Shown here: piece by piece, positions 1,551 through 26,770 of the stretch
How the letters are laid out: every line of letters starts with the position of its first letter
How positions within the stretch are numbered: the stretch's first letter is position 1
Assembly (NCBI GenBank): GCA_963754305.1
Contig: CAVWFR010000026.1
Coordinates: 42,606-106,605, forward strand
DNA length: 64,000 nt
Direction: 5' to 3'
Origin: an uncultured beta proteobacterium
Lineage (GTDB): Bacteria > Pseudomonadota > Gammaproteobacteria > Burkholderiales > SG8-39
Translations under genes and position numbers: made by a program
Notes under the pieces: generated by a model
What the model was told of the DNA's origin: nothing
Databases searched by the model: none
Seen by the model: the letters and a program-made list of their open reading frames with translations, nothing else

Positions 1551-1551
1551 C

Positions 1552-2704: not shown

Positions 2705-2900
2705 GCAGGGCGTGCGCGCGCGGAGCCCGCGAACCCTACGGTTCCGGACGCGCGGCGTCAACGCGCGCTCGCCGCCGCTGTCGCGGGTTGGCACCTGCCG
2801 CCTGCTTTGGGCATACTTCACCTCCCGCGCAGTCGCACCAAGAAGCGAAGACGACGGCTCCTCCCGCCCGGGGCGGGACGAGCGCCAGAGAGGGCTACCT

Positions 2901-4103: not shown

Positions 4104-4109
4104 GCGCGC

Positions 4110-7295: not shown

Positions 7296-7296
7296 C

Positions 7297-8768: not shown

Positions 8769-8822
8769 GTTCGCGGTGTCGACAAGTGCGGAACCGCGCG
8801 GCCCGCTGCTCGGCTTGCGCCA

Positions 8823-11800
8823 TCACGGCGCGCGGTCGGGCCGCCCGACGAACGGATCGAGGAGGTCGATCGGCGTCTTGACGACCGCGCGTAAGAGATT
8901 CACCAGGCCGTCGCCGATCGCCGCCGGCCCGAGCGGGACGACCCGCGGGTCGTCCAGATCGCCGGTGACGCTGACCGGAATCCCGACCACGCGGGCGCCG
9001 AAGATGCCGCCGATGATCGGGATGTGCTGCATCACCTCCTGGATGCGGTTGAACGGCGCGACGATGCCGCGCATGTCGACTTGCCCCGCAGGAACGTCGA
9101 CCTCGCCGGTCATCGCGAGCCCGAGCGCCGCCGCGTTCAGCGTACCGCTCTCGACGCGCACGCGGCCGCCGTCGACCGTACCCGCGACGGCGAGCTCGCT
9201 GTAGTCGAGGCCCCTTGCCATCAGCTCCGACGGCCGGGCGCGCAGCACCGCGCCGACCGCGTCGAGCGATAGGATGCGCGCGAGGGCCGGTGCCTCCTGG
9301 ATCTGCCCGTCGCGCGCCGTGAATCGGAAGGTGCCGTGCATGGCGCGCGCCAGAGCGTCGGGCGGTCCGCTCGCAGCGAGGTCGGCGTCGAGATCGAACG
9401 TCCCGGTTAGCGCGATGTGCACGCCGGTCAGGCAGATCACCGTTCCCTTGATCGCCTCGCCGCGCGCCGCGATCTTCCACGTCACGCTCGCGCTGCCGGG
9501 CACGAACACCGCGTGCAGCGGCCACGGGAGGTCGCAGAGCCGCGCCTCCTTCACGTCCGCCACGATGCGCTCCGGCGCCAGCATGACGGTGCCCGACACC
9601 GAGCGCGCGATGTACCGGCCGTAGGCGAGGCTCTTCGCGTCGACGGCGATGCGGCCTTCAACCGGCAGGTTCCAGCCAGCCGCGCCTCGCGGCCCGGCCT
9701 CGCCGCGCGGGAACGCGCGGAGCAGGGGCTCGGCGTCGATCGCGTCCGCCGTCGCGCGGAGATCGAGCCCGAACGTCTTCGGCTGGCGCGTGACCGCGCC
9801 GGTGAGCGCGAGCGGCTCGCCGGCGATCACGAATGCGCCTTCGTGGATCCGGACGGCGTCGCCGGCGACGTCGAGGCGCACGCGCTCGATCGCGACCGGG
9901 ATGTCCCAGCGCTCCAGGATGTCGATCCGGTCGCCCTCGAGCGCGCCGGTCGCGCTCGAGCTGGCGCGGGTCGGCGAGATCGATCGTCGCGCTGAAATCG
10001 CCCTGCAGCGCGCCATCCCCTTGCGGCGGATGAGCGAGCACCCGGGCGAGCGTGCGGTTGTCGAGTTTCCCCTTGAACGTGAGCTCGAGCGTCGAGGCCG
10101 CCCACTTCAGCGACGCAGTAGTGTCGGTGTCGGGGTCGTTCACCACCAGCCGCCGGAGATCGAAGTCGCCCGATTGCGTGGTGAGGTCGAAATCGGCCCG
10201 CACGCCGCTGGCGAGGCCGAGCGACGCTTGCGCGGCGAGCGGGGCGGCTTGCCCGCCGGCGCGCTGCACGCGCCCCGACGCGAGCGTGAGCGGCGTGCGC
10301 GGCATCACCTTGAGCGGCAGCCGCCAGCGCGCGCGCGCCCACTCGAGGGTACGGTCACCGGCGCTGCCGTCGGCGAGCGTGAGGTCGAGCTGCGGTTCGT
10401 CCGACGCGTAGTCCGCGATCGTTCCGGACGCGACGACGCGCGCGTCGAGCATCGACGCGTCGAGCCGGTCGAGCGCGACCGAGCGCGGCGTCACCCGCAG
10501 CTCGCCGGCGGAGAGAGTCACCGGCGCAGGTAGCGTCCCCCCGGAGAAGCGCGCCGGCTGAGGTCGGAGCACCGCTTCGTAGTCGAGCGCCGCCGGGTGG
10601 TTCACCGGACCGGAGAGCCGCGCGAGCCTGGACCGCGACCGTACCGGTCGCGTTGAGGATCCCGCTCGTCGGTCGCCGCAGTCCCTCCAGCGAAGCTAGC
10701 CAGGGGTAGATCTCGTCGAGCACGACCACGGCGTCCGCACTTGCCGCGCGCACGGCGGGCTCCCGTCCCAGCGCGAGCTCCAGCGCGCCGCCCTGGATCC
10801 GCGAACGCCCGAGGCTCGCGTCGAGCCGGCGCACGTCGAGACGATCGCCGGCGTAGCGGACCGCGCCGCCCGTGACCTCGATCGGCAACGGCAGGCCACG
10901 GTAGCGCCCGCTCGCCTGCATCCGAGTGAGGTCGACCGCGACGTGCGCGCGGCTGCGGTCGGTTTCGTACGCCACCGTGCCCGACGCGCGCCCGCGCACC
11001 GACTCGACGTTGGCGAGCGCGGCAGGCTCGGGCTTGCCGACCAGGCGCCGCACGATCGCGAGCGTCTCGGCGAGCTCCGCGTCGACCGCCGCCTCGAGCT
11101 TGCGCAGCGCCGCGTCGGGTATGAGGTCGACGGCGAGCGCGCCGCCGGTAAACGTCGACTTGCCGATCGCGCCCGCGAGCTCGGTCCCCCGCAGCGTGCC
11201 GTCGGCGAGCGCGAAGCGCCCGGCGCCGCCGGTAACCGCGATGCCGAACGCCGGCAGCTCGAGCGCACCGTTCGCGAGCTGTGCCTCCACGCGCATCGCC
11301 CCGAGCGCCCCGAGCGCGCCGAAATCGCTCCCCGCTGCGCCGGCGCTCAAGCCGCTCACCGTTCCGGTCGGGACGAATGCGACCGCCGCGCGCACGGCGT
11401 CGAGATCGCCGACGAGCGCCGCAAGGGCTGAGCGCACGCGAGCAAGATCGAGCGCGGGGACCTGCACCTCGATCGCCGGCGCCGTGCCATCCGCCTTCGC
11501 GCGCAGCGTCCCCGTCGCCGCCGGGAGGAGGTCGCCTGCCTTGAGCTCGCGCACCGAAACCGCGAGCGTGGTCTCGTCGCGCTGCGCGTCCAGCGCGGCG
11601 CGCACCGGACCCAGATCGAGCGCGCGGGAACCGCGTGTGAGCGTCATTCCCGGCGCCGCCGCGGTAGCCGTCGCGCGCACGCTCGCGCGTCCGTCCGTTT
11701 GCGCCTCGAGGGACGCGTCGACAGCGCCGGCGCTCACGCGCATCTCGCCCTGCGCGCCGGCCGCCTGCAGCAGCTCCGCCAGGCGCAGGCCGCTCAGCTG

Positions 11801-12454
11801 CAGCTTGCCCGTCGCCGCGAGCGAGCCCGGCGCGATCTTCAGGTCCGCCTTGGCGGTGCGCCACAGATCCGCGGCACCGCTCGCGCTGACTGTGATCGCA
11901 TCCGCCGCGACCTGCGCGTCGGCCGCGAGCCCGGCGAGCGACACCATCCGCTGCCCCGCATACACCACGCCGACCTTGCCGTCGGTGATCCTGAGCGACA
12001 TCCCGCGCGCGTCGCGGACGAGCGCGTCGACGACCGGGCCGAGCGCGGCGCGGTACGCGGCGAGCGGGTCCCCCCCACCGCCGCCGCCGGGCTGGATCGT
12101 GATCTCGAGCTCGGGCCGCCCGACGTTCACCGCCGCCGGACGGACGTTGCCGCTGAGCAGCGGCAACAACGCGATGCGGATCTCGAGCGCACCGATCCGG
12201 CCGTCGAGGGTGCCGGGGATGCGGACGGTGGCGTTGCGGGCTTCGGCGTACGGTTGCGGGAAGAAGCGCAGCTTGAGCGACTCGTAGCGCACCTCGCCGC
12301 CGGCGACCGCCGAGATCCGCTGCTCGACGGCGCGCCGGACGCGGTCGGCGTCGACGAAGAGCGGTGCCGCGGCGAGGGCGGCGACGAGGAGCGCCGCGAT
12401 GGCGGCGATCCCGAAGACGATGCGGCGCAGCCAGCCGGTCCGAGGTGCGGGCAT
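8823..12454 (-). pseudogene. AsmA-family large envelope protein (about 1210 aa if repaired), two frameshifts (possibly sequencing errors)
   Basis: ATG at 12454 gives MPAPRTGWLRRIVFGIAAIAALLVAALAAAPLF, an N-terminal anchor plus AsmA-like N-domain. The sequence continues through three listed ORFs in three frames: 10355..12517, 9658..10605 and 8823..10016. Junctions are near 10627 (..TGTVAVQ / LARLSGPVNHPAALDYE..) and near 9948 (..IDLADPRQLE.. / ..GALEGDRIDILERW..). The C-terminus ..QEVMQHIPIIGGIFGARVVGIPVSVTGDLDDPRVVPL.. is AsmA-like. The span is 3n+2. Confidence 0.75.
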
Positions 12455-12528
12455 GCCCAACCCTAATGCAGCCGGGAACGATCCGCGGCGAAGGCTTGCC
12501 GATGAATCATCTCCCATCCGAGCGTCGG

Positions 12529-12790
12529 TTACCGCTGGCGCGTACCACTGTCATTGCCTGCGCCTTCCGCCAGGAGGGGGCTTCCTGGCGAACGGGCTTC
12601 CAACCCTGACCCGGTCGTGGACGCCGTCGGGGAACCGGGAGGCGGATAGACGATCGATCCGCGGATCTGACCGGCCTGTTCCCGCGAGAAGTTCGGGAAG
12701 GGAAGGGAGCCCTCGTCCCGCCACTCTCGCACCCTGGCTTCCGCTTCCAGTGCTTTCCCCTCGTCGGGACCGTGGTCCGTTCGAAATCGC
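12529..12790 (-). pseudogene. orphan 3'-terminal fragment of an MscS-family channel gene
   Basis: Minus-strand reading gives ..TDHGPDEGKALEAEARVREWRDEGSLPFPNFSREQAGQIRGSIVYPPPGSPTAS..EARSPGSP.. with a stop at 12529. This parallels the C-terminus of the full gene at 15584..17533 (..SDRGPDERKALEAEARVREWRDEGSLPFPNFSPEQAGQIRGSVVYPPPGS..). No MscS-like sequence lies upstream of about 12790. Confidence 0.6.
12575..12790 (-). repeat. direct repeat B, downstream copy (orphan MscS 3' fragment)
   Basis: 12631-12790 aligns ungapped to 15698-15857 (offset 3067). I counted about 13 mismatches there. Identical runs are 12684-12717 (34 nt) and 12719-12758 (40 nt). 12575-12630 aligns more loosely, with indels, to about 15640-15697. 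Confidence 0.8.
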
Positions 12791-12898
12791 CCGGCTTCCA
12801 GGTCTTGAAAAATGCGGAGTGCTCCAGACCAGGCGGCCCGCTCGAACCATTCTTCACCAAACAGTGGCGGCCGAGCGAAATCGAGCTGGTGAAGTAAA

Positions 12899-14311
12899 TC
12901 ACCCGGCGCGCCTGAGAACCGCGGGCCGTGTCAACAGGCTCTCTAGTCGCTGGCAGCACGCGCCGGCGAGAATCTTCCAGAACGGTCTCGAGATTTCTTC
13001 GAGCGGGCGGCCCGGATCCCCAGGCTCAAGCCCATAGCGGATGAGCGCAACCAGGTCTGAACTCACCGCAGGGTCAGAGACGAAATAGCTGTGACCGATG
13101 AAACCGAGTGTTTCGGTGACCTCGATAAAGGTGGCCCAGCCGGCGATTGCCCGCGACTTGTCGAGGTCTTCCTTGCTGAGCGTTGACTGCTTAACACGTC
13201 CCATCCGGCGCAGGCTGCCCATCAAAAATTCGGCCAAGCTGAGCGCCTTATCGCCCTCCGACATGTAAACAGTGAGGCGCAGCGTGGGATGAGGGAAGAC
13301 GAACCGCGGATTCGGCGCATTCCTGTAGGGCAGGTCGGGGTCGGATTCGATGCTGAACAGCTTGGCTATCGCGACATCTAAATCCAGGTCAGGCGACATC
13401 AGCACGATGTTACGTACCTTGAATCTGCTGTCGAGCAGCATCCCGTTTATGTAGGCCTCGATCTCGAGCTCGCGCAAGGCCGTAGTCAACACATCGGTGC
13501 CGCGACTGTGGGCAAGGAGGTGCATCCGCTCCACTCCGGGCGTGTCGGCGATGATGCGGATGGCCTGCTTGAGGTGAAACACGGCGAACTCGCCCGACTC
13601 GCGATCGACGTTGTAGCCGAAGAACAGGCCGCGCGAGCCGCCCGCGGGCCACGTGAAGATCGCGCAGACGAACTCGCGACCGAGGAAATGGCACAGCTCG
13701 CCCATCGTGAACGACGCGTCCTGGAACGTGTTGGCGTAACCATGGACGAATAGCACGACTTCCTTGCGCGGCGCGGCGGCGAGCCGGCGCGCAACCTCAG
13801 CCTGCAGCGCGGCTGCCGCCTTCTCATGCGCGCCAATCGCAGCGGGGGTCCGCACGAGGCCTGCGGGGGTGGCCTCGACGCCGTAGGAGATCGCCGGAAA
13901 TCGCCCAAGCTCCGTCGTCGGTCCGAGCCTCAAGTCAAGCGGCACCGAGCGCTCGCTCAGGGTGCTCTGGGCAACCAACGTGTTCCAGGGGACCCCTTCG
14001 CCGAACTCGATCGTGACCGCGCCGAACGCCATCGAATGCGAGCGCTCGGCGCTGTAGGGAAGCGTCTTGGCCGCCTCGGTTCCCGGCGCGCGATTGGTGA
14101 CGTACAGCAGATCGACGGAGGCTTTCTGGCTATCGGCCGGAATATCCGCGAACAGGGGCTTGGCCTGTTGCCCGACGTACACCGTTGGAGTGGGCATCAG
14201 CGGATAGGTGGTTGCGCAGCCGGTGAACAGCGCGATTGCCGCAAGCATCGCGATATGGCGGCAATACCGGTACGCGGCGGCACCAATGCCCAGGGCGCGG
14301 ATGAGGATCAC
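12899..14311 (-). CDS. alpha/beta hydrolase lipoprotein (DUF900-type)
   Basis: 470-aa ORF starting at GTG 14311. The lipobox ..AMLAAIALFTGC suggests a lipoprotein; an alternative ATG at 14248 would leave too short a signal. The nucleophile elbow is HLLAHSRGT, preceded by VVLFVHGYANTF. The layout matches what I recall for Pfam DUF900 hydrolases. G+C is visibly lower than in the neighbours. Confidence 0.7.
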   Translation of the reverse strand: MILIRALGIGAAAYRYCRHIAMLAAIALFTGCATTYPLMPTPTVYVGQQAKPLFADIPADSQKASVDLLYVTNRAPGTEAAKTLPYSAERSHSMAFGAVTIEFGEGVPWNTLVAQSTLSERSVPLDLRLGPTTELGRFPAISYGVEATPAGLVRTPAAIGAHEKAAAALQAEVARRLAAAPRKEVVLFVHGYANTFQDASFTMGELCHFLGREFVCAIFTWPAGGSRGLFFGYNVDRESGEFAVFHLKQAIRIIADTPGVERMHLLAHSRGTDVLTTALRELEIEAYINGMLLDSRFKVRNIVLMSPDLDLDVAIAKLFSIESDPDLPYRNAPNPRFVFPHPTLRLTVYMSEGDKALSLAEFLMGSLRRMGRVKQSTLSKEDLDKSRAIAGWATFIEVTETLGFIGHSYFVSDPAVSSDLVALIRYGLEPGDPGRPLEEISRPFWKILAGACCQRLESLLTRPAVLRRAG

Positions 14312-14424
14312 TTCTCAAATGTCGTTGGCTCATGTTCGAGCTTCGTCAAGTCGGCTAAGGTGCAGCGTCGCAATACTGCAACGATACTCCCCGCAGGTCG
14401 GTTTCCAGCTTCAATGCGGCCGCG

Positions 14425-15456
14425 TTACGGGACTGCAGGCCGAGGGTCGGGCAGCCCTTCGCGTATCCGTTGTGAAAATGCGGGATCCCGATCCGCCGCC
14501 TTCGCCTTGCCGTCGATGTGGCTCAGCCTGCGCAGCTCTTCGAAGGGCAGGCGCGTGTCCACGATGCTCTGGTCGTACAAGCGCTCGTCCAGGTAGCCGT
14601 TGGCCAACAGGCGCCAATCGAAAGGAGGTGCGTCCGGTTCGACGTGTTCCGCGTGGCGGCGGATGCTCGTCGTACAGTTGTCGACGAGCGCATTGTAGAA
14701 CTGCGGGCGTTCAACCAGGCCGTTGATGCTGTCGACGTAGTCCAGCAACAGCGCCCGGGCCAGCGCCGGTGTGGACTTGAGTCGGTAAAGGTAGACCTGC
14801 TCGCCGCGATGATTGGTGCGCAGCCCCACCACGTCGCGCTCGTCGGCCACCACATAGATGATTTCGTACTGCCTGAAAAAGCCCTTGAGTGCGGAGTATT
14901 CCTGCCCCCTGCGCTTGCGCGTCTCGATCGAGACGGCTAGTGGCGGCGCGTTCTCGAACTGCCAGCTCATGATCGTGTGCGCGATGGCCGGCGAACCCCA
15001 ATAGGACATGAAGAAGTCGACCCCGCGCAGCTTGGAGAGATCGTAGGTGCGATCCTCGTAGCGCGCGGTGAAGTCGCCTTCGGTGCGGTAATCGAAGTTA
15101 CGAACGTTGCGGATGGTCAGCTGCTCTCCCCGCACCTCGACCCGCGGCAAGCGCGCCACATCGGGCTGCCAGTCGCGGTCGTTGCTGGGCCGAATCGTGC
15201 TCCACCAGATGAGCAAGGCGACAAGGGCGAGGCCCCAGACCGCGAGTGCCCAGCCGAACGGGCGCAACCACAGAAGGATCGCCAGCGTGCCCAATGCGTA
15301 AGCCGCCGCGAACCCAGTCCTAAGCCACGCGGGGTCGGGCCCCGCAAATACCAGGGCAAGCGTCCACCACGCCGTCACCAAGAGGATGGGTATGCTCGCA
15401 GCGACACTTGTCGCGCGTTTCACGTCGGATTTCCTCTCTCGACATCCGTCGTTCAA
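14425..15456 (-). CDS. DUF4105-domain membrane protein (N-terminal transmembrane helices plus periplasmic domain)
   Basis: 343-aa ORF. Hydrophobic helices at the N-terminus (..IPILLVTAWWTLALVFAG.., ..AAAYALGTLAILLWL.., ..WALAVWGLALVALLIWW..). These are followed by ..RPSNDRDWQPDVARLP.., ..SYWGSPAIAHTIMSW.., ..YNALVDNCTTS.., which I recognise as DUF4105-like. It lies 114 nt upstream of, and co-oriented with, the DUF900 gene. Confidence 0.65.
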   Translation of the reverse strand: MNDGCRERKSDVKRATSVAASIPILLVTAWWTLALVFAGPDPAWLRTGFAAAYALGTLAILLWLRPFGWALAVWGLALVALLIWWSTIRPSNDRDWQPDVARLPRVEVRGEQLTIRNVRNFDYRTEGDFTARYEDRTYDLSKLRGVDFFMSYWGSPAIAHTIMSWQFENAPPLAVSIETRKRRGQEYSALKGFFRQYEIIYVVADERDVVGLRTNHRGEQVYLYRLKSTPALARALLLDYVDSINGLVERPQFYNALVDNCTTSIRRHAEHVEPDAPPFDWRLLANGYLDERLYDQSIVDTRLPFEELRRLSHIDGKAKAADRDPAFSQRIREGLPDPRPAVP

Positions 15457-15583
15457 GCGGCCGGCCCTTCCAGGAGCGACAGGCTCATCCGCACTGGCCG
15501 CTGGGTATTGCTAACCTAAGTTGTTATTTCCCGCCTTCACTCGCCGAAGCACGGGGAAGACCGCCGAGTTCCCTAAGTTTTCT

Positions 15584-17533
15584 CTAGGTTCGCTTTGGCC
15601 GCCCGACCCTTGCATGGTCGTCGGCCAGGTCTTCTGCCGACGGGGGATTCCCCGGCGAACGCGCTTCCGACCCCGATCGGGCGGCGGGGGCTGCCGTGGA
15701 ACCGGGCGGCGGATAGACGACGGATCCGCGGATCTGGCCGGCCTGTTCCGGCGAGAAGTTCGGGAAGGGAAGGGAGCCCTCGTCTCGCCACTCTCGCACC
15801 CTGGCTTCCGCTTCCAGTGCTTTCCTCTCGTCCGGGCCGCGGTCGCTACCGAGATACAGCGTCTGCGAGGGAAACGCGAACGCCGCGCCGGCTTGCTCGA
15901 CGAGATCCATGATCCGCAGCAGGATGTCCTGCCGAATGCCGAGGAATTCCGCCCAGTCGCGGGTCATCACGTAGGCGAACACCTCGATGTCCACGGAGGA
16001 GGCCCCGAACCCGATGAACCGCGCGCGCGCCGGGTCGGGGTCAACTCGAGGATGGCCCAGCAGCAATTGCTGGAGCTTGACGAGGACGTAGCGCAGCTGT
16101 TCCGGTTTTGTCTCGTAGCGCAAACCGATGACGGTCTGGATCAGCATCTGGTCCCGCCGCGTGAGGTTCACGATCGGCATCTTGGCCAGCGCCGCGTTGG
16201 GAATCGTCGTGAGCGTGCGATCCACGCCTCGGATCCGGGCCGAGCGAATGCCGATCGCCTCCACCGTCCCGACCGCGTCGCCGTATTTGCAGACATCGCC
16301 GACCCGGACGGGCTTGTCCGCGAACAGGCTCAAGCCCCCGATCAGATTCTCGACGGTCGGCTGCGCGGCCAGGGCGATGGCCAATCCCCCGACGCCCAGC
16401 CCGGCGACGATTCCATACACCGGCACCCCCAACCGGTCCGCACCCACCGCGAGCAGCGCCATGCCGACGACGATTCCCAGCAGACGGGCGCCGACGCGGA
16501 TGAGATGGGCGTCGATGCTCTCGGGCGCGATTCTCGGCGAGGCGATGATCGCTTCGGCGACCACTGGTGCGAGGCGCCACGCCATCCATGCGCCGGCGAG
16601 GAACACGACCGCGGTCGCTGCGAGTTCGATCGCGCTGCCCAGGGCACCGACCACGTTGAGCTGATCGAGCGCCAGGTAGGCCGCCGCTGGCGTCGCGGCG
16701 AGAACCGAGGCCGGCAGAGCGAACTGCGCCAATGCCCGTAGAAACGGGTGCTCGTGGCCGCCCAGCTGCGACACGCGGTACGCGAACCACAGGAAGAGCG
16801 CGAGAACGCCCAGGACCAGGGCGAGGCCGATCCACTTCCAGCCCGACTGGCCGGCAATCGGGGTGCGCAGCGACGCCGGCAGCGATTGAATCCAGGCGTA
16901 CGGAACCATCCAGCCCCCGGCGATGGCGTCGAACTCTTTCAGGTTTTCGAAAGGAACCGGACGGATGTAGGGCAATCCGCGAACCCGCTCGTAGAACTCG
17001 TCCGCCCGGGCAACGGTCTCGGCGCTGAACAGGAACTCGCCGCTGCGTGGCCCGCTTTGCGCGCGTTCGAGGGCAATCTCCGTGTTCGGGATCACCCAGC
17101 GCGTCGGGCCGGTGCTGGCGGGCTGCTTGACCTGACTGGCGTCGGGGATCTCGTCGAGAGGCGGAAGCGGGATCCTGCTCAGGATCTCGTACAAGGCCAC
17201 CGCCGCCGCCACGCCCGTCGTTTCGCGGGCCGCCGGCGGCACCTCGCTCAAGTCCAGAGATTGCACGGGAATCCTGCTCAGGGCGATCAGGCGGTCCTGC
17301 GCGCGCGAGGGAGACGGCAGGTAGTCGCGCGCCAGAAACGCGGCAACGTTGTCAACGGAATCGAGAAACGTCTTCAGCGTGGCGCGCGGACTTGATCGGT
17401 CGGGGGGCTTGAGCGGATGCACCTGCTCCTGGGCGAGCGCGACCGCGGCAATCAGGAGAAACGCCAATGGCGCAACCAGCCGGCAAAGCCGCTTGCCGCC
17501 CGCCGAAAGAAAACCCGATCCGAGCCTCGTCAT
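15584..17533 (-). CDS. mechanosensitive ion channel family protein (MscS-like, large periplasmic N-domain)
   Basis: ATG at 17533 inside ORF 15584..17770 gives signal-like MTRLGSGFLSAGGKRLCRLVAPLAFLLIAAVALAQEQ. The MscS core is ..PTVENLIGGLSLFADKPVRVGDVCKYGDAVGTVEAIGIRSARIRGVDRTLTTIPNAALAKMPIVNLTRRD.. . Confidence 0.85.
   Translation of the reverse strand: MTRLGSGFLSAGGKRLCRLVAPLAFLLIAAVALAQEQVHPLKPPDRSSPRATLKTFLDSVDNVAAFLARDYLPSPSRAQDRLIALSRIPVQSLDLSEVPPAARETTGVAAAVALYEILSRIPLPPLDEIPDASQVKQPASTGPTRWVIPNTEIALERAQSGPRSGEFLFSAETVARADEFYERVRGLPYIRPVPFENLKEFDAIAGGWMVPYAWIQSLPASLRTPIAGQSGWKWIGLALVLGVLALFLWFAYRVSQLGGHEHPFLRALAQFALPASVLAATPAAAYLALDQLNVVGALGSAIELAATAVVFLAGAWMAWRLAPVVAEAIIASPRIAPESIDAHLIRVGARLLGIVVGMALLAVGADRLGVPVYGIVAGLGVGGLAIALAAQPTVENLIGGLSLFADKPVRVGDVCKYGDAVGTVEAIGIRSARIRGVDRTLTTIPNAALAKMPIVNLTRRDQMLIQTVIGLRYETKPEQLRYVLVKLQQLLLGHPRVDPDPARARFIGFGASSVDIEVFAYVMTRDWAEFLGIRQDILLRIMDLVEQAGAAFAFPSQTLYLGSDRGPDERKALEAEARVREWRDEGSLPFPNFSPEQAGQIRGSVVYPPPGSTAAPAARSGSEARSPGNPPSAEDLADDHARVGRPKRT
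15640..15857 (-). repeat. direct repeat B, upstream copy (3' end of the intact MscS-family gene)
   Basis: See 12575..12790. Confidence 0.8.
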
Positions 17534-18024
17534 CGGTCGATCTCCTCCTCGAGTCAGAGCCCGGCGGCCCAGCGCTATTGCCACGCGATGCCGACCGCGC
17601 TGAACTGGTTCCGGTGCGAGCCGCCAGTGGGTGGGCGAGCTGCAAGAGCGGGGTGCATCCGGCGCCGAGCATGAAGACGTTCGCACGATTGTCCCGCCAG
17701 AACGCGCCTCCGGCGCAAAGAAGCCCAGCGCGTTGCTCTCGCCGCCCGCGGCTTCCTGCCATCCGTGCATGAGGCGAGTCTAGCCCAGTGCGCGAAGGGA
17801 CAAAGCGGGCGTGCTCGCGCGAGCAGCAGCCCCTAACCCTGATTGCCTCGAAGAGGTACCCAACCCAGCAATCCGGACGACGGCCAACAAAACGGTATGC
17901 GAGAATTCTCGCGCTTGGCTTGAAAGGTATCCTGCTTGCGCTCATTCGCGGATACCCGCCCGCTCGAGCGGATCTGCCAATGAAGGAGTCGCCAGCGTAC
18001 TGTTCCGCCGTCGACGCTCGATTG

Positions 18025-18273
18025 CCCGATGACACCGTTCGGTCGCGGCTGCGTTTCGACAACGGCTACGCCGGCTACCTCGAGGTGCTCTATGCGTCGA
18101 ACGAGCTCTTCGCCGCCGAGCTCGCCGCGGTCCAGTCGCAGGTCGAGGATTACTCGCAGCTCGTGAACGTGTACAAGGCGGTCGGCGGCGGCTGGGTGAA
18201 CGAGGCCGACAAGCTCGCGCCGCAGCCGCAGGGCATGGCGGCGCGCGAGCCCCGGGAGCCCGAAGGGAACTGA
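18025..18273 (+). pseudogene. orphan 3'-terminal fragment of an efflux OMF (NodT-family) gene
   Basis: The tail of ORF 17788..18273 reads ..RSRLRFDNGYAGYLEVLYASNELFAAELAAVQSQVEDYSQLVNVYKAVGGGWVNEADKLAP.. . This parallels residues near the C-terminus of the OMF at 7297..8768. Sequence upstream of about 18025 has no OMF similarity. Confidence 0.7.
18042..18225 (+). repeat. direct repeat A, right copy (orphan OMF 3' fragment)
   Basis: See the left copy at 8525..8708. Confidence 0.85.
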
Positions 18274-18314
18274 GCGCGCGGCCGCCGCCGGCGGCCATTT
18301 CAGGGAGGGCCGGA

Positions 18315-19087
18315 ATGGGAATGGATTTCACGCTGCAGGTCGTGCTGTTGGCGGGCGGTATCTTCGCCGCGATGCTGGGCTGCCTGGAGATCGGCCGCCG
18401 GTACGGCGCCCGCCGGAGAGCGCAGGATCCGGAGGGTGCGGGCGCGGGCGTCGTCGACGGGGCGGTGTTCGCGCTGCTCGGCCTGCTGGTGGCCTTCACC
18501 TTCTCCGGGGCCGCGTCGCGCTTCGACGAGCGCCGCAAGCTGATCATCGAGGAGGCCAACGCGATCGGGACGGCGTACCTGCGGCTCGACCTGCTGCCCG
18601 CCGCGGCGCAAGGCGAACTGCGCGCCCGGTTCCGCGACTACCTCGATTCGCGGCTCGCCGTGTATCGCGCGCTGCCCGACCTCGACAAGGCGAAGGCCGA
18701 GCTCGCCCGCGCCAGCCGGCTCCAGCAGGAGATCTGGTCGAAATCGGTCGCGTCCGCGACTGGGTCGCGCCGCCCGCCACCATGCTGCTGTTGCCGGCGC
18801 TCAACGCGATGATCGACATCACGACCACGCGCACCATGGCGGCGGAGATGCACCCGCCGAAGATCATCTTCGGCCTGCTCTTCGGGCTCTCGCTGCTGAG
18901 CGCGCTGCTCGCCGGCTACACAATGGCGAGCGCCAGGGCCCGCGACTGGTTGCGCATGGGCGCGTATGCCTTCACGCTAGCGGGGGCGGTGTACGTGATC
19001 CTCGACATCGAGTATCCCCGGGTCGGCCTGATCCGCGTGGATGCCTTCGATCGCGTGCTGGTCGAACTGCGGGAGAGCATGCGGTAG
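18315..19087 (+). pseudogene. DUF4239-like membrane protein, one frameshift near 18755-18780 (possibly a sequencing error)
   Basis: ORF 18315..18812 (MGMDFTLQVVLLAGGIFAAMLGCLEIGRRYG...RLQQEIWSKSVASA) degenerates into ..RRPPPCCCCRRSTR. ORF 18782..19087 in another frame continues sensibly: (PPAT)MLLLPALNAMIDITTTRTMAAEMHPPKIIFGLLFGLSLL... . The span is 3n+2. The family call comes from memory of the DUF4239 pattern. Confidence 0.55.
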
Positions 19088-19172
19088 GCGCCGCACGGGC
19101 GCGCGTCGGGGCGCTTGGCGCGCGCACCCGGGCACGGGCATACTCCACGTCCGCTGCCATTTCGCCTCCGCG

Positions 19173-20027
19173 ATGACCCCGTTCGAGCTCGCCGAACCAC
19201 GCACGCTGCGCGACGCGCTCGCGCTCCTCGATCCCGACGACGCCACGGTCCGCCCGATCTCCGGCGGTACCGCGGTCATGCTGATGATGAAGGCCGGTGT
19301 GCTGCGGCCGCGGCGGCTCGTCAGCCTGCGCTCGATCGACGGCGGGCTTGCCGGCATCGGCCTCGATGCCGACGGCGGGTTGCGCATCGGCGCGATGACG
19401 CCGCTCGCCGAGCTCGAGCGGTCGGAGACGGTGCGAAAGGGCTGGCCGGTGATCGCGCGGACGCTCCGCACGCTCTCCAACGTGCGCGTCCGCAACGTCG
19501 CGACGATCGGCGGGCACCTCGCGCACGGCGATCCGCACCAGGACCTGCCGCCGGTGCTGAGCGCGCTTGGCGCGCGCGTCGCCGTCGCCGGCCCGAAGGG
19601 CGAGCGCACGGTGCCGGTGGAGCGGCTCGTCACCGGCTACTACGAGACGGTCCTCGCCCGGGACGAGCTGATCACCGCGGTGAGCGTTCCGGCGCTCGGG
19701 AAGAAGCGCGCCGCCTATCTCAAGTGCACCACGCGCTCGGCCGACGACTGGCCGGCGCTCGGGATGGCGGTCGCGCTGGAAACCGAAGGCGACGCGATCC
19801 GGACGGCGAGCATCGTCATCGGCGCGGCGACCGACAAACCGACCCGGCTCCTCGCGGCCGAGAGCGCGCTCCGCGGCGCGCGCGCCGACGAGGCGACGCT
19901 CGCGCGGGCGGGCGACGCGGCGGCCGACGAGCTCGCGATCGTCGGCGATACGCGCGGTTCGGCGGGCTACAAGAAGCAGCTCGCCCGCGTCTACCTCCGG
20001 CGCGCGGTGCGCGCCGCACTCGGATAG
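19173..20027 (+). CDS. xanthine dehydrogenase family FAD-binding subunit (CoxM-like)
   Basis: ATG at 19173 inside ORF 19041..20027: MTPFELAEPRTLRDALALLDPDDATVRPISGGTAVMLMMK.., ..NVATIGGHLAHGDPHQDLPP.., and the C-terminal ..GSAGYKKQLARVYLRRAV.. typical of medium subunits. Confidence 0.85.
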   Translation: MTPFELAEPRTLRDALALLDPDDATVRPISGGTAVMLMMKAGVLRPRRLVSLRSIDGGLAGIGLDADGGLRIGAMTPLAELERSETVRKGWPVIARTLRTLSNVRVRNVATIGGHLAHGDPHQDLPPVLSALGARVAVAGPKGERTVPVERLVTGYYETVLARDELITAVSVPALGKKRAAYLKCTTRSADDWPALGMAVALETEGDAIRTASIVIGAATDKPTRLLAAESALRGARADEATLARAGDAAADELAIVGDTRGSAGYKKQLARVYLRRAVRAALG

Positions 20028-20040
20028 CGACCGGTCCGAG

Positions 20041-22338
20041 ATGAAACGCGCCAGCACACCCACCGAAACGCCGCAGGTCGGCCGCTCGATCCCGCGCCTC
20101 GAGGCGTGGCAGAAGGTCACCGGTCGCGCCGAGTACGTCCACAACCTGCGGCTGCCGGGGATGCTGTACGGCAAGATCTTCCGCAGCACCGTGCCGCACG
20201 GGCGAATCCGGCGCATCGACGTCGGCGCCGCGCAGGCCGTCGGCGGCGTGTACCGGGTGGTCACCGCCGACGACGTCCGCACCATCGTCCCCGAACCGTA
20301 CTACGGCCCGGCCTTCCACGACCAGCCGATTTTGGCGATCGACAAGGTGCGCTACATCGGCGAGCCGGTCGCGATCGTGCTCGCCTCCGATCCGCACGTC
20401 GCGGAGGAGGCGGCGCACCTCATCGTCGCCGAGTACGAGGAGCTGCCCGCGGTCTACGACGAGATCGAGGCGATGACGTCGAAGGCGATCGTGCACGACG
20501 TGCTCAAGCCGGCGGGCACCTTCCCCGACCTGAAGCACCTCAAGGGCCGGGCGAACACCAACGTCGCGCTCGACTACCACCTGCGCCGCGGCGATGCCGA
20601 GGGCGCATTCGCGGCGGCCGACCGGGTCTTCGAGCACACTTTCCGGACGCAGCAGGTGATGCACACGCCGCTCGAGCCGCTCGTCTCGGTCGCCGAGTCG
20701 CGGGAGGACTCGCTCACCATCCACACCGCGTCGCAGAGCCCGTCGTTCGTGCGGATCGAGATCGCGCGCCTCCTCGGCTGGCCCGAGAACCGCATCCGCG
20801 TGCGCGCGCCGTTCCTCGGCGGCGGCTTTGGCGCGAAGCTCTACATCAAGCTCGAGGCGCTGGTCGCGGTGCTCGCGCTACTCACCCGCCGGCCGGTGAA
20901 GGTGTCGCTCACTATGGAGGAGCAGTTCTTCACCATCACCAAGCACGCGACGACCTTCAGGATCCGCAGCGGCGTGACGAACGACGGGCGCATCACTGCG
21001 CGGCAGTGCGAGGTGTGGTGGAACGGCGGGGCCTACGCCGACATCGGCCCGCGGGTGACGCAGAAGTCGGGCTTTACCGCGCCAGGGCCGTACGACATCG
21101 AGCACGTGGCGATCGATTCGTACGCCCTCTATACGAACCTGCCGCCGGCCGGCGCGCTGCGCGGCTTCGGCATTCCGCAGCTCGTCTGGGCCTACGAGAG
21201 CCACACCGACATGATCGCGCGCGAGCTGAAGCTCGACCCGCTCGCGTTCCGCCGCAAGAACCTGCTGCGCGACGGCCGCCCGCAGGCGACCGGCACCGTC
21301 ATGCAGGACGCGGCGCTTGGCAAGGTGCTCGACCGGATCGAGGTGCTCATGGACTGGGAGCGGCCGCTCGAGCGCGGCAGCGGACCGGTCCGCCGCGGCC
21401 GCGGGATCGCGATCGGCTTCAAGGCCTGCGTCGCGCCGACGACCTCGGTCGCGATGGTGACCCTCAACGCCGACGGGAGCTGCATCGTCTACTCGGGCAC
21501 GGTGGACATGGGTCAGGGCTCCGACACCGCGATGGCGCAGATCGCCGGCGAAGTGCTGCACCTGCCCGCCGAGTCGGTGACGGTGGTGCACTCCGACACC
21601 GACGTGACGCCGTACGACATGGCGACGCTCGGGTCGCGGTCGCTGTTCCACATGGGCAATGCGGTCAGGCTCGCCGCCGAGGACGCGCGCGCGAAGCTGC
21701 AGGCACTCGCCACCGAGGCCGGATTGCCGGCCGACGCGGACGTGCCGATCGGCGACATCTTCCGCCAGCGCTACGGCATGCAGGCCGGGAACGTGATCGG
21801 GACGGCGAGCTTCATCCCGAGCTATACCTCCCCTGACTATGCCACCGGGCTCACGCCGAACGCGACGCCGTTCTGGATGGTCGGCGGCGCGGGCGTCGAG
21901 GTGGAGGTGGACACCGAGACCGGCCACGTGCGCATCGCCCGGCTCGTGAACGTGGTCGACGCCGGCACGCCGATCAATCCGAAGATCGTCGCGACCCAGA
22001 TTTCCGGCGCGGCGATCATGCAGCTCGGCTTCACGCTGTTCGAGAAGATGGATTTCGACGCCGGGCAGCTCCGCAACGCGTCGCTCGCGGAGTACAAGAT
22101 CCCCGGCTTTCACGACCTGCCGCGCGAGATGGTGAGCGAGGCGGTCGACGCCGAGCAGCGCACCGGCCCCTTCGGCGCCAAGGGCGTCGGCGAGAGCGGC
22201 ACGTTCGGTGTCTCGCCCGCGATCGCCAACGCGATCGAGGACGCGGTCGGCGTCCGCCTCACATCGCTCCCGCTCACCGCGGAGGCGATCTATCGTGCAT
22301 TGCGCGCCGCGGAAGGCTCGCCGCTGGAGGACGACTGA
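20041..22338 (+). CDS. xanthine dehydrogenase family molybdopterin-binding large subunit (CoxL-like; not a true CO dehydrogenase)
   Basis: Intact 765-aa ORF with aldehyde-oxidase/XDH a/b-hammerhead and Mo-binding motifs (..KVTGRAEYVHNLRLPGMLYGKIFRS.., ..GGGFGAKL.., ..GALRGFGIPQ.., ..GAKGVGESG..). I did not see the CODH active-site AYxCSFR loop. Confidence 0.9.
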   Translation: MKRASTPTETPQVGRSIPRLEAWQKVTGRAEYVHNLRLPGMLYGKIFRSTVPHGRIRRIDVGAAQAVGGVYRVVTADDVRTIVPEPYYGPAFHDQPILAIDKVRYIGEPVAIVLASDPHVAEEAAHLIVAEYEELPAVYDEIEAMTSKAIVHDVLKPAGTFPDLKHLKGRANTNVALDYHLRRGDAEGAFAAADRVFEHTFRTQQVMHTPLEPLVSVAESREDSLTIHTASQSPSFVRIEIARLLGWPENRIRVRAPFLGGGFGAKLYIKLEALVAVLALLTRRPVKVSLTMEEQFFTITKHATTFRIRSGVTNDGRITARQCEVWWNGGAYADIGPRVTQKSGFTAPGPYDIEHVAIDSYALYTNLPPAGALRGFGIPQLVWAYESHTDMIARELKLDPLAFRRKNLLRDGRPQATGTVMQDAALGKVLDRIEVLMDWERPLERGSGPVRRGRGIAIGFKACVAPTTSVAMVTLNADGSCIVYSGTVDMGQGSDTAMAQIAGEVLHLPAESVTVVHSDTDVTPYDMATLGSRSLFHMGNAVRLAAEDARAKLQALATEAGLPADADVPIGDIFRQRYGMQAGNVIGTASFIPSYTSPDYATGLTPNATPFWMVGGAGVEVEVDTETGHVRIARLVNVVDAGTPINPKIVATQISGAAIMQLGFTLFEKMDFDAGQLRNASLAEYKIPGFHDLPREMVSEAVDAEQRTGPFGAKGVGESGTFGVSPAIANAIEDAVGVRLTSLPLTAEAIYRALRAAEGSPLEDD

Positions 22339-22438
22339 AATGAAACCGACGCCGCAGGCGGCGCCTTCGTGGCGTCGGGGAGCACGAGGGGGCGCCGCGA
22401 AGCGGCCTGCCCCTTCGTATCGTGAGGAACTGAAATGA
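22334..22438 (+). repeat. 95-bp intercistronic segment flanked by the 10-bp direct repeat ACTGAAATGA
   Basis: ACTGAAATGA occurs at 22334-22343 (spanning the large-subunit stop) and again at 22429-22438 (spanning the small-subunit start). The enclosed sequence has an 8-bp inverted repeat, CCGACGCC (22346-22353) and GGCGTCGG (22371-22378). Confidence 0.7.
22340..22438 (+). other. 32-codon bridging mini-ORF between the large and small subunit genes (coding status doubtful)
   Basis: The ATG at 22340 lies 2 nt after the large-subunit stop (TGAaATG). The ORF reads MKPTPQAAPSWRRGARGGAAKRPAPSYREELK. Its TGA (22436-22438) overlaps the small-subunit ATG (22435) as ATGA. It lies inside a 95-bp segment flanked by a 10-bp direct repeat. 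Confidence 0.2.
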
Positions 22439-22929: not shown

Positions 22930-22954
22930 CAACATCGTCGTAGGAGGAACGTTC

Positions 22955-25266: not shown

Positions 25267-25286
25267 TTCCCGCGCGCGGCCCTCGC

Positions 25287-26708: not shown

Positions 26709-26770
26709 CGTCCTCCCTTCGTCGCGGACGGTACACTTGGCGCCATTCTCGCATCGAGGCGCGCAAGCGA

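Follow-up and report, generated by a model that had tools for sequence, protein, structure and literature searches.

Direct duplication of a gene segment around added DNA, and the stranding of gene ends, have both been attributed to recombination. In E. coli, a single crossover with a circular molecule gave duplications of 109-950 bp of the homologous segment (PMC3240628), and homology-facilitated illegitimate recombination or circular intermediates have been proposed for stranded 3' ends at T6SS and Rhs loci (PMC5361080; PMC2935791). Here we describe a locus from an uncultured beta proteobacterium (GCA_963754305.1, contig CAVWFR010000026.1, positions 42,606-106,605 of the forward strand; this whole stretch of 64,000 nt is called the window) in which two membrane-protein genes, an MscS-family gene and an outer-membrane factor (OMF) gene, each have an orphan copy of their own 3' end some kilobases downstream. 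We favour the reading, with a probability of roughly 55%, that the 9.3 kb involved forms a patchwork in which three or more chromosomal segments (A, B and C below) were joined by homology-anchored and illegitimate recombination between related genomes. Such joining is an already known kind of event, not a new mobile element that targets gene ends.

Nested duplication of two gene ends

The features of the locus, in window coordinates, are as follows.

7296-8768, plus strand: intact OEP-family OMF gene (Pfam PF02321), last gene of an MFP-RND-OMF efflux operon
about 8487-8730, plus strand: OMF repeat copy 1 (outer pair), the 3' part of the intact OMF gene, from the repeat search
8731-8768, plus strand: novel 12-codon tail of the intact OMF gene in place of the last ~8 native codons, diverging from the orphan and from L145
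8823-12454 (ORF span to 12517), minus strand: AsmA/YhdP-like gene (PF13116, PF05170), segment B
12529-12790, minus strand: orphan MscS 3' fragment, 87 codons plus stop, with an apparently native "type I" end, recognised as a repeat, segment B
12791-12897, plus strand: DUF1254/DUF1214-family gene-end remnant, last ~27-35 codons, by peptide match, far end of segment C
12899-14311, minus strand: DUF900 alpha/beta-hydrolase gene (PF05990, E = 2e-54), segment C
14425-15423 (ORF span to 15456), minus strand: DUF4105/Lnb_N gene, 332 aa, NlpC/P60-type acyltransferase family (PF13387, E = 1.5e-42), segment C
15476-15583, minus strand: native spacer that follows the intact MscS gene, colinear with L144
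15584-17533 (ORF span to 17770), minus strand: intact MscS-family gene, 649 aa, "type II" tail (PF00924, PF21082), segment A
15584-15857, minus strand: MscS repeat copy 2 (inner pair), the 3' part of the intact MscS gene, from the repeat search
17557-17731, minus strand: decayed Phenol_MetA_deg remnant and leader, by tblastn and alignment, upstream end of segment A
17732-18004, no strand: 273-nt stretch separating the orphan OMF from segment A, where the 9.3-kb insert has its right junction
18005-18273, plus strand: orphan OMF 3' fragment, ~89 codons, with an apparently native end, from the repeat and colinearity with L145
18315-19088, plus strand: bestrophin-like gene (PF14023), native right flank

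A preliminary description of this DNA had reported the MscS 3' end twice on the minus strand, nested inside a like duplication of the OMF gene, and we confirmed both. The inner pair (12564-12777 and 15631-15844) is 85% identical over 214 nt on the same strand at a spacing of 3067, and the outer pair (8506-8712 and 18023-18229) is 89% identical over 207 nt with an identical run of 83 nt. Both pairs are far beyond chance, since the repeat families that come next in size within this 18-kb region measure just 24-46 nt (66-96% identity). When 12631-12790 was compared without gaps to 15698-15857, the identical runs were exactly 40 and 34 nt, as described, but the mismatches numbered 19 rather than about 13, with ten of them within 12631-12777 and the remainder at the homology edge. 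Homology of the orphan MscS extends from about 12790 to its stop codon at 12529.

The comparators, designated by L numbers, were metagenome contigs throughout, many of which look like long-read assemblies with indel errors, and the parental stand-in sequences are 77-92% identical to the window, which places junctions to within ~10 nt. Such indel errors probably explain why the AsmA-like gene is split over three frames in the window (it is a single 1240-aa ORF in L003 and a 931-aa call in L061); the bestrophin-like gene reads as 165 aa in the window versus 257 aa in L056, L060 and L061. The clade comparators are ENA contigs, several with frameshift-type errors, and L056 stops at 12944, near the junction at about 12790, as might be expected if a metagenome assembler had joined two strain haplotypes in series. 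Nevertheless, we consider such an origin highly implausible. Long reads should easily span repeats that are as short as about 250 nt and have diverged by 8-15%, and these are not an assembly artefact, since they recur in four further independent assemblies: the complete structure is present in L061 (an independent sample, 98.9% identity) and in L060 (with an AsmA-side stretch just ~85% identical to the window), and part of it in L056 (98.8%) and L147 (94.8%). The arrangement is confined to this clade of about 95-99% identity, indicating that it is not an ancient conserved duplication.

Empty sites in relatives and the ends of the insert

Two relatives carry the flanking genes without intervening DNA. 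In L063, the AsmA-like gene (84.9%, colinear) follows directly after an MscS gene (86.7% nucleotide identity), an abutment that the preliminary description had suggested looking for. L145 has just one OMF end, with the bestrophin-like gene directly after the RND-OMF genes; this contig is colinear with the window over 1774-8712 and resumes at 18043-27244, and a 187-nt stretch of it matches both OMF copies of the window. Because L063 and L145 show these "empty" arrangements, both orphans appear to be the native gene ends, and they agree with relatives in tail, stop-codon context and downstream DNA. Judged against related genomes, extra DNA separates each orphan tail from its intact gene.

At the outer pair, the intact OMF gene is colinear with L145 (92.2%) up to 8712 and departs from both L145 and the orphan copy after GCGCCGC, 8 codons before the native stop. 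The new tail had been taken for a surrogate OMF end, an interpretation that finds no support: 8731-8768 has no OMF homology and no homolog in any fetched locus, and it sits in the 3' flank of the AsmA-like gene, where homology to L063 past the AsmA stop fades at about 8785-8799. The tail is probably a read-through across the left insert junction into this flank. The orphan OMF, on the other hand, matches L145 at all five distal sites that differ between the copies, and over the distal 48 nt its identity to L145 is 97.9%, versus 87.5% for the intact copy. Its tail and downstream DNA are colinear with L145, and the bestrophin-like gene begins 42 nt after it, as in L145. Neither blastn nor tblastx matched the adjoining stretch at 17732-18004 to a fetched locus of any other species.

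The AsmA-like gene starts ~75 nt downstream of the orphan MscS, in the same way as it follows the MscS gene in L063. The tail of the orphan ends in GTRQR* and is 79% identical to L003 and only 62% to the intact copy, and its stop context, GGTAACCGACGC, is common to L003, L001 and L062, with GGTGACCGACGC in L063.

Segments of the insert and their relatives

The insert divides into segment A (15476-17731: Phenol_MetA_deg remnant, MscS and its own spacer), segment C (12791-15475: DUF4105, DUF900 and the DUF1214 gene-end remnant) and segment B (about 8731-12790: MscS 3' remnant and AsmA-like gene), each with its closest relative in a different genomic context.

In segment A, the intact MscS gene is 87.6% identical to that of L144 over 2001 nt, and its tail is 80% identical to L144 versus 67-69% to L003, L062 and L063. 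Colinearity with L144, in which MscS is followed by a patatin gene, covers this tail, the 108 nt of spacer beyond it and some 200 nt upstream. The spacer ends in a 26-mer (15476-15501) that lies upstream of the patatin gene in both L003 and L144 and is identical at L003 7420-7445. Starting at 17731, homology to L144 passes the stop codon and reaches at least 15510; in the alignment it also takes in the 26-mer and extends to 15476, which places junction J1 between spacer and DUF segment at 15476/15475, in intergenic DNA. Thus, in place of the proposed cargo-borne surrogate end, the intact MscS gene has a tail and spacer colinear with L144, and the DUF segment starts at 15475. At the other end of the segment, the Phenol_MetA_deg remnant (17557-17667) represents the last ~25-35 codons (tblastn with the L003 and L063 proteins, E = 0.002-0.006), with an in-frame stop and a frameshift in the alignment, and the leader of about 60-110 nt beside it is common to L144 only.

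Segment C has its closest relatives in L146, L064 and L065, none with any MscS piece. DUF900 is 88.6% identical in nucleotides to L146 and 82.6% to L064 and follows DUF4105 there too; DUF4105, called at 332 aa in L061 and L147, has homologs of 82-88% identity in other contexts. Homology to L064 starts at 15474 and to L065 at 15459. The far end encodes a remnant peptide, GPLEPFFTKQWRPSEIELVK*, convergent with DUF900, that matches DUF1254/DUF1214 C-termini in L023, L027, L018, L065 and L146. Junction J2, between this remnant and the orphan MscS, lies at about 12790/12791 with at most 2-3 nt of microhomology. The preliminary description had asked whether the DUF pair travels with an MscS 3' segment; it occurs without one in L064, L065 and L146, as well as in the more distant L067, L130, L136 and L141; L057-59 have DUF4105 and a DUF900 remnant, likewise without an MscS segment.

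The DUF pair had also been described as more A/T-rich than its flanks. Raw GC is indeed low (62.8% over 12791-15583 and 56.9% over 13081-13440, versus 68.7% for the window), and the lowest 1-kb windows of the entire 64 kb fall in this region. However, when judged by GC at third codon positions (GC3) the low-GC unit takes in MscS: GC3 is 0.80-0.81 in DUF900, DUF4105 and MscS (0.81 in MscS), compared with 0.85-0.95 in the AsmA-like gene and flanks and a mean of 0.888 (sd 0.042) for 32 other ORFs.

The two MscS copies gave conflicting phylogenies for core and tail. Over the 145-nt core they are 93% identical to each other and 85-88% identical to any relative, with informative quartet sites 5:1:0 for the pairing of intact with orphan; over the 101-nt tail they are 62% identical, with 10:1:0 for intact with L144 and orphan with L003. 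Core and tail differ in mismatch density (Fisher p = 3e-9).

Tails that fall in different clades, an intact MscS gene flanked by native DNA upstream and downstream and the position of J1 exactly at the patatin-upstream 26-mer would also be expected if two full MscS genes had once stood in tandem, a type II gene with patatin (as in L144) and a type I gene with the AsmA-like gene (as in L063), with the orphan as the leftover of the second. This possibility, which bears mainly on the inner pair, invokes no insertion into any MscS gene; DUF4105-DUF900-DUF1214' would have replaced DNA from the patatin upstream region to codon ~560 of the second MscS. It fits the order MscS-DUF4105-DUF900 without an orphan MscS in L147, and the patatin, Phenol_MetA_deg, MscS and AsmA-like genes that are neighbours in L003 and L063. 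We nonetheless regard it as unlikely, since tandem MscS genes of this family were absent from the 55 genome loci and from ENA and JGI contigs, and the outer pair is left unexplained, with both flanks syntenic with single-copy L145 and the intact OMF gene cut short of its native stop.

Routes by which the segments may have been joined

The repeated layout of gene, cargo and displaced native 3' end led the preliminary description to propose a recurrent insertion mechanism that targets gene 3' ends. Because the junctions carry two more gene-end remnants, those of the DUF1254/DUF1214 and Phenol_MetA_deg genes, the scars look like ordinary breakpoints rather than the work of a target-specific mechanism. 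Degenerate site-specific integrative elements, similar to cis-mobilisable ones, with surrogate 3' ends and a recombinase lost or acting in trans, could account for the layout seen twice, the low-GC cargo and the identical runs of 34, 40 and 83 nt, the 34- and 40-nt runs serving as crossover cores. We judge such elements quite improbable. No integrase or transposase was found among the called genes of the clade's five assemblies or related loci, in agreement with the earlier remark that none is present; the window has no tRNA or tmRNA, 7000-20000 has no Rfam match, and none of the segments is bounded by direct or inverted terminal repeats in excess of chance. The 34/40-nt runs, suggested earlier as att-like sites, fall in the most conserved coding motif, WRDEGSLPFPNFSPEQAGQIRGS; none of the 55 MscS loci has a second copy, and the 34-nt run has no exact match in viral contigs. 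Moreover, the OMF tail lacks OMF homology, the MscS tail continues into its own spacer with cargo starting 108 nt past the stop, the DUF pair occurs elsewhere without MscS, and the outer cargo is ordinary chromosomal DNA syntenic with L063.

Also improbable, though slightly less so, is a single replication-based event, by microhomology-primed template switching or break-induced replication, that copied several nearby loci in one pass, duplicated the re-entry points and so created both pairs at once. The repeat cores have nearly equal identities (92.9% and 93.1%), and their divergence of ~7% could indicate one complex event instead of separate ones; long homology is missing at all junctions, several short fillers (8731-8785 and 17732-18004) matched no fetched locus outside the species, and the L003 MscS locus shares its neighbouring MFS gene with the efflux operon of the window, so that the source loci may have been neighbours. 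Against this, the GC3 of A and C departs from that of B and the flanks, suggesting a foreign source; MscS tails from different lineages are not copies of one template; and separate events are favoured by L147, in which A, C and the OMF orphan are present and B is missing.

What the comparisons show for the patchwork of segments is its anatomy, the two empty sites, the segment boundaries and the conflict between core and tail; the route, order and direction of the events we infer. The sources would be related betaproteobacterial genomes with the same envelope and lipid genes in other orders, joined by general recombination. One joint would form in sequence common to both partners, the conserved 3' region of OMF or MscS, and the second without homology, either by homology-facilitated illegitimate recombination or by single-crossover integration of a circularised fragment. 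Either route would leave a direct repeat of 200-260 nt, with a working gene at one end and the resident 3' end stranded at the other. Breakpoints that keep the upstream region of the next retained gene (AsmA-like, bestrophin-like or MscS) would hit the end of the preceding gene; 3' ends would thus recur because viable products survive, not because of a targeting machine. Among the genomes compared, we found no donor with OMF convergent on the AsmA-like gene and none outside the clade with type-II MscS followed by DUF4105-DUF900.

The near-identical repeat cores count against the patchwork in that they need an extra step, gene conversion or heteroduplex mismatch repair. Exchange between the copies seems to have made the cores partly uniform after their formation; the L061 orphan has the derived base of the intact copy at one clear site, a tentative hint of gene conversion or mismatch repair between them. 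The repeats could mediate precise loss of the insert, and the arrangements seen in L063 and L145 could be secondary deletions of this kind.

Just beyond the right flank, a ~500-nt tract (19170-19670) has 2 mismatches to L145, with flanks mostly 80-95% identical; this near-identity suggests that recombination is active at the locus.

Two nested repeat pairs and their uninterrupted counterparts

The 3' end of the gene for the MscS-family channel is present twice on the same strand, as the preliminary description had noticed, with 12564-12777 and 15631-15844 sharing 85% identity over 214 nt and homology that begins at about 12790/15857 and extends to the stop codons. The lengths reported for its identical runs, 40 and 34 nt, were exact; the ungapped stretch, for which about 13 mismatches had been claimed, contains 19, of which 10 fall within 12631-12777. 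The outer pair, formed by the end of the outer-membrane factor (OMF) gene and a stranded copy of it, also proved real (8506-8712 versus 18023-18229, 89% identity, identical run of 83 nt), and the inner scar is indeed nested inside the outer one. The remaining repeat families within the same 18 kb measure merely 24-46 nt. The anchor duplications, ~243 nt for OMF and ~262 nt for MscS, form direct repeats around inserted DNA, arranged as listed below, with genes assigned by Pfam as an OEP-family OMF, AsmA/YhdP-like, DUF900, DUF4105 (current Pfam name Lnb_N, PF13387), MscS-family and bestrophin-like.

Features of the nested structure (window positions)
8506-8712: end of the intact OMF gene, as aligned to its copy
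~8731-12790: segment B, with the orphan MscS 3' end and the AsmA-like gene
8823-12517: AsmA/YhdP-like gene
12529-12790, minus strand: orphan MscS 3' end
12791-15475: segment C, with DUF4105, DUF900 and a DUF1214 remnant
15476-17731: segment A, with a Phenol_MetA_deg remnant, MscS and a spacer
15584-15857, minus strand: 3' end of the intact MscS gene
18005-18273: orphan OMF 3' end
18315-19088: bestrophin-like gene

The longest window ORFs for MscS and DUF4105 have wrong starts, and relatives were reached via homology searches and cluster members (comparison loci and contigs are designated L001-L147). The AsmA-like gene is spread over three reading frames in the window, whereas L003 has it as one ORF of 1240 aa and L061 as a 931-aa call; for the bestrophin-like gene, the reading is 165 aa in the window versus 257 aa in three contigs of the same clade (L056, L060 and L061). 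Both shortened readings probably reflect long-read indel errors in assemblies rather than pseudogenes.

The structure recurs in assemblies of the same clade, in full in L061, which comes from another sample and is 98.9% identical, and in L060, and in part in L056 and in L147, a more distant strain (94.8%) with which the bestrophin-to-DUF900 part is common. This recurrence rules out an assembly artefact. Judged by its nearest relatives, the window comes from an uncultured betaproteobacterium of environmental metagenomes. One stretch of L060 (13127-17883, matching window 14337-9410) is 85% identical with 238 gap openings, between sides that are 96-98% identical; either the consensus is badly polished there or the strain has a diverged allele of its DUF900-to-AsmA region, and the stretch was treated as poor consensus and left out of inference.

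Both uninterrupted arrangements survive in relatives, which makes this locus a clean natural case of two nested insertion scars. An MscS gene directly abutting the AsmA-like gene was found in L063 (86.7% nt identity to the window MscS gene and 84.9% to the AsmA-like gene), where 5510-5760 matches the MscS orphan, stop codon included; in L062, MscS is followed by an AsmA-like remnant. The orphan terminates in GTRQR*, and its stop context (GGTAACCGACGC) is common to L003, L001 and L062, with one base different in L063. For the outer pair, L145 carries an MFS-MFP-RND-OMF cluster with a bestrophin-like gene 50 nt downstream. Its positions 1-6944 match window 1774-8712 (92.2%) and its positions 6758-15913 match window 18043-27244 (85.2%), so that one OMF end corresponds to both window copies and the window holds 9.3 kb extra. 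The distal 48 nt of the OMF orphan are 97.9% identical to L145 and continue into the same downstream DNA. As had been proposed, extra DNA relative to related genomes lies between each intact gene and its stranded end, and each of the two orphans is a native gene end, sharing its tail or downstream DNA with relatives.

Because both uninterrupted arrangements exist, the boundaries can be read almost to the nucleotide, a precision limited by stand-in parents that are only 80-88% identical. The L063-like and L145-like states could also be secondary losses, since the repeats can recombine. For the outer event, a donor origin of the left flank was looked for in comparison with L145, and no identity step marking a crossover was found (~87-95% identity on the left, ~91-97% over the first 700 nt on the right).

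Segments, junctions and composition

The DNA around the intact MscS gene is native to it. Both the tail (ADDHARVGRPKRT*) and the sequence past the stop are colinear with L144, a JGI soil-metagenome contig having a patatin gene after MscS, and the homology runs past the stop to 15510 by blastn and, by alignment, through a 26-mer at 15476-15501. The tail and its 108-nt spacer match L144 and the cargo begins at 15475, which argues against the idea that the DUF cargo brought in a surrogate MscS end. Upstream of MscS, ~200 nt are also common to L144 and hold the decayed last 25-35 codons of a Phenol_MetA_deg gene that is intact upstream of MscS in L003, L062 and L063; in the window, this remnant and the MscS leader occupy 17557-17731 (minus strand). 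Since the remnant and the leader are common to L144 and not to L003, L062 or L063, Phenol_MetA_deg was truncated before the MscS loci of the window and L144 separated, and, with native sequence on both sides of MscS shared with L144, 15476-17731 constitutes one segment (A) with its own native ends. Over the MscS gene body, identity is 85-88% for each of L144, L063, L062 and L003 and the profiles are mosaic, leaving the flanks alone informative on origin.

The 26-mer (GCGGCCAGTGCGGATGAGCCTGTCGC, minus strand) is identical in L003 (7420-7445), despite genes that are only ~85% identical, and nearly identical in L144 (~2670-2700). In both of these loci a patatin-like lipoprotein gene follows it at a distance of 35-90 nt, and in the window its place is the junction ahead of DUF4105; possibly this 26-mer is a conserved regulatory site. 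MscS homologs with 60-69% aa identity are found in MAGs labelled Verrucomicrobiota, Planctomycetota, Deltaproteobacteria, Lentisphaerae, Kiritimatiellia and Betaproteobacteria (L006-L042), a patchy taxonomic spread suggesting transfer of the channel gene itself.

Segment C starts at 15475, the point at which homology to L064, L065 and L146 sets in, ~52 nt ahead of the start of DUF4105. At its far end, the opposite strand of 12791-12897 carries the final 27-35 codons for a DUF1254/DUF1214 protein (GPLEPFFTKQWRPSEIELVK*). The junction of segments A and C (15476/15475) joins two unrelated intergenic regions. At the other junction (12790/12791), where the DUF1214 remnant meets the MscS orphan, the stand-in parents for DUF1214 and MscS have no more than 2-3 nt in common.

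DUF4105 and DUF900 recur together as a two-gene module, found at 88.6% nt identity in L146, 82-84% in L064 and 80-84% in L065, and in more distant carriers (L067, L130, L136 and L141); L057-59 have DUF4105 followed by a DUF900 remnant. Elsewhere the pair neighbours DUF1254/DUF1214 genes, a porin, a sulfatase or Phenol_MetA_deg. The possibility that the pair travels with an MscS segment, raised as a question in the preliminary description, was not borne out, as none lies beside it in those seven carriers, nor beside DUF4105 in L057-59. Full MscS genes of this family do adjoin DUF4105 in some Verrucomicrobiota contigs (L023 and L034), and the two genes look functionally linked, an apparent association that weakens the idea of random cargo. 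A set of neighbours recurs in changing order in Betaproteobacteria and Verrucomicrobiota (L023, L034, L057-59, L063, L003, L065, L146 and L144), comprising a ~650-aa MscS, DUF4105/Lnb-like, DUF1254/DUF1214, patatin, Phenol_MetA_deg, sulfatase and AsmA-like genes together with DUF900 or another alpha/beta hydrolase. This recurrence of envelope and lipid genes suggests a functional guild.

In line with the A/T-richness that had been noticed, raw GC is lowest in the DUF pair (62.8% versus 68.7% in the window; 56.9% at 13081-13440); the low-GC3 unit is not limited to it. GC3 is 0.80-0.81 in DUF900, DUF4105 and MscS alike, so that the compositional unit takes in the intact MscS gene. By comparison, GC3 is 0.85-0.95 in the AsmA-like gene, efflux genes, OMF orphan and bestrophin-like gene and averages 0.888 (sd 0.042) in 32 other ORFs. 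Codon positions 1 and 2 account for the further lowering of raw GC in the DUF pair. L147, represented by one contig, keeps the MscS-DUF4105-DUF900 block, and its synteny with the window ends at 12880, 20 nt into the DUF1214 remnant; beyond that point neither the MscS orphan nor the AsmA-like gene comes next in this contig, a result to be read with caution. The shared GC3 and the block in L147 suggest that segments A and C arrived together. At 6230-6450 of L147, DUF900 is followed by 20 nt of antisense DUF1214 end, then by a forward DUF1214 3' fragment (MFRFYSPTAPLFDGTWKLPDIELMK*) and a radical-SAM gene, which in this single contig reads as an orientation flip at the same breakpoint region.

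At the edge of segment B, the new tail of the OMF gene, PPPLLGGARPADGTSTAQNPR (8731-8768), has no OMF match and falls within the DNA flanking the AsmA-like gene on its 3' side. It seems that the reading frame of the efflux gene simply runs 12 codons across the junction, and the view that the insert carried a surrogate OMF end is not supported, this tail being unrelated to any OMF. Homologs were found for neither of the two fillers, 8731-8785 and 17732-18004.

Repeat cores and the search for a mobile element

The two MscS copies have different histories in core and tail. Over the 145-nt core they are 93% identical to each other and only 85-88% identical to L144, L003, L062 or L063; over the 101-nt tail their identity is 62%, the intact copy matching L144 at 80% and the orphan matching L003 at 79%. 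Quartet sites favor grouping the two copies in the core (5:1:0) and grouping intact with L144 and orphan with L003 in the tail (10:1:0), and mismatch density differs between core and tail (p = 3e-9). A pure in-situ duplication of the MscS end is ruled out because the two tails group with different lineages. The OMF cores behave similarly, with 92.9% identity between copies and 89.3% between each copy and L145, and in the distal part the orphan equals L145 at all five sites that differ between copies.

The identical cores coincide with the best-conserved peptide motif (WRDEGSLPFPNFSPEQAGQIRGS). The runs of 40, 34 and 83 nt lie in cores of 140-145 nt that as a whole are ~93% identical, a level that fits conservation plus exchange between copies. 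To us the cores look like the place where two diverged alleles recombined, or like a tract converted later between them, and not like attachment sites. In L061, the orphan has the derived base of the intact copy at one site, perhaps a slight hint of continuing exchange.

The proposal that the identical runs are att-like cores recurring at island borders found no support, with no exact match of the 34-nt run in viral contigs and one MscS tail per locus at 55 genome loci; the 26-mer also had no exact match in viral contigs. The reported absence of an integrase was upheld in the Pfam-labelled called genes of related loci and in window ORFs between 8.8 and 20.3 kb. Pfam labels gave no recombinase in the four contigs of the same clade (L056, L060, L061 and L147) or in the other related loci (L062, L063, L144, L145, L146 and L057-59), and no transposase was present among the called genes of these loci. 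Direct or inverted repeats at segment ends reached a longest match of 6-8 nt, equal to shuffled controls, and the duplications are instead ~250 nt long; together with the lack of a transposase, this rejects a transposon or insertion sequence. No tRNA or tmRNA gene was found in the window, Rfam gave no match in 7000-20000, and in 12300-18400 there was a single promoter-like site, as expected by chance, and no site resembling a terminator. A plasmid origin was likewise rejected, as distant blastn of 12500-18300 against PLSDB returned only 66-70% matches to DUF900/DUF4105 on rhizobial and other large replicons and no related block. A recurrent insertion mechanism targeting gene 3' ends therefore receives no support: MscS has kept its own end, the tail of the OMF gene is unrelated, there is no recombinase and no repeated use of the site was seen.

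A proposed homology-anchored route and its known counterparts

The observation of two bracketed insertions is confirmed and its interpretation partly supported, in that insertion, nesting and the native status of the orphans hold and surrogate ends, att-like cores and targeting of gene ends do not. Most economically, each pair would have formed through two joints, one of them in shared sequence and the other lacking homology, by a route that would be either homology-facilitated illegitimate recombination or single-crossover integration of a circularised fragment. A joint inside homologous sequence is seen in the switch of closest relative within the repeat, for both MscS and OMF. Among the relatives, which serve as stand-ins, none proved to be a donor with the predicted native arrangement. 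A single complex replication-based event could instead have made both pairs, in keeping with repeat cores that are both ~7% diverged, and a tandem intermediate, in which an MscS tail of the kind now on the intact gene preceded one of the kind now on the orphan, may have existed earlier. Two joints per pair, one homologous and one not, remain the simpler description.

All four remnants (OMF, MscS, DUF1214 and Phenol_MetA_deg) are 3' ends. A breakpoint sparing either the DNA upstream of the next retained gene or a convergent gene's end would fall in the last few hundred bases of the neighbour, and we infer that such survivorship accounts for the 3'-end remnants better than targeting.

In genomic islands and cis-mobilisable elements residing in gene 3' ends, direct 3'-end repeats flank compositionally atypical DNA, with the native end pushed downstream. 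The locus shares these features with islands in protein-coding or tRNA genes but differs in lacking a recombinase, here and in relatives, and in a cargo of ordinary chromosomal genes; moreover, what looks like a surrogate MscS end belongs to the gene itself and keeps its native spacer, the tail of the OMF gene is unrelated sequence, and no recurrent site use was seen.

A closer parallel is provided by illegitimate and Campbell-type recombination, in which one joint lies in shared sequence and the other has at most a few nt of microhomology, and foreign DNA is gained beside a conserved anchor gene without a dedicated recombinase. In E. coli, single crossover with a circular molecule leaves 109-950-bp duplications of the homologous segment (PMC3240628), a range matching the ~243-nt and ~262-nt repeats here. 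Those events come from laboratory crosses with defined donors, whereas donors, direction and order are here deduced from relatives of 77-92% identity. In addition, the classical illegitimate route usually deletes resident DNA (PMC3240628), whereas a partial duplicate remains here, and the repeat cores here would need later homogenisation.

Stranded 3' ends of T6SS effector and Rhs genes have been attributed to homology-facilitated illegitimate recombination or circular intermediates (PMC5361080; PMC2935791). Rhs, CDI and T6SS loci likewise show a working gene, new downstream DNA and a stranded former 3' end with a piece of the conserved core, in a layout that can be repeated or nested, and in the window both former ends (12529-12790 and 18005-18273) are retained downstream with a core fragment. 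The genes here, in contrast, encode a mechanosensitive channel and an efflux outer-membrane factor, an immunity gene and selection for tip diversity are both absent, and MscS gained no new functional tip with the cargo. The locus is not that of a polymorphic toxin, its neighbours being DUF4105 (Lnb_N), DUF900 and the AsmA-like gene. It is a fresh example of an already known type of recombination scar and reveals no new mechanism.

It seems unlikely that the displacement process of toxin loci acts generally on conserved envelope genes. If it did, 3' homology in membrane-protein genes would repeatedly anchor the recombinase-free capture of lipid and envelope segments from relatives, each capture would leave a 200-260-nt direct repeat and hence be reversible by simple recombination, and the MscS, DUF4105/Lnb-like, DUF900, DUF1254/DUF1214, patatin, Phenol_MetA_deg, sulfatase and AsmA-like set would have been reshuffled in this way across phyla. 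The locus itself offers a small view of the reshuffling of envelope and lipid operons. It also illustrates that the look of a mobile element, with a gene followed by compositionally different DNA and an old gene end, can arise by ordinary recombination between differing gene orders, a caution for island-finding based on repeats and GC.

Within a FAD_binding_5 gene, window 19170-19670 differs from L145 by 2 mismatches over ~500 nt, in surroundings that are mostly 80-95% identical. This tract looks like a recent homologous exchange between the window and L145 lineages, so that recombination between them is evidently active.
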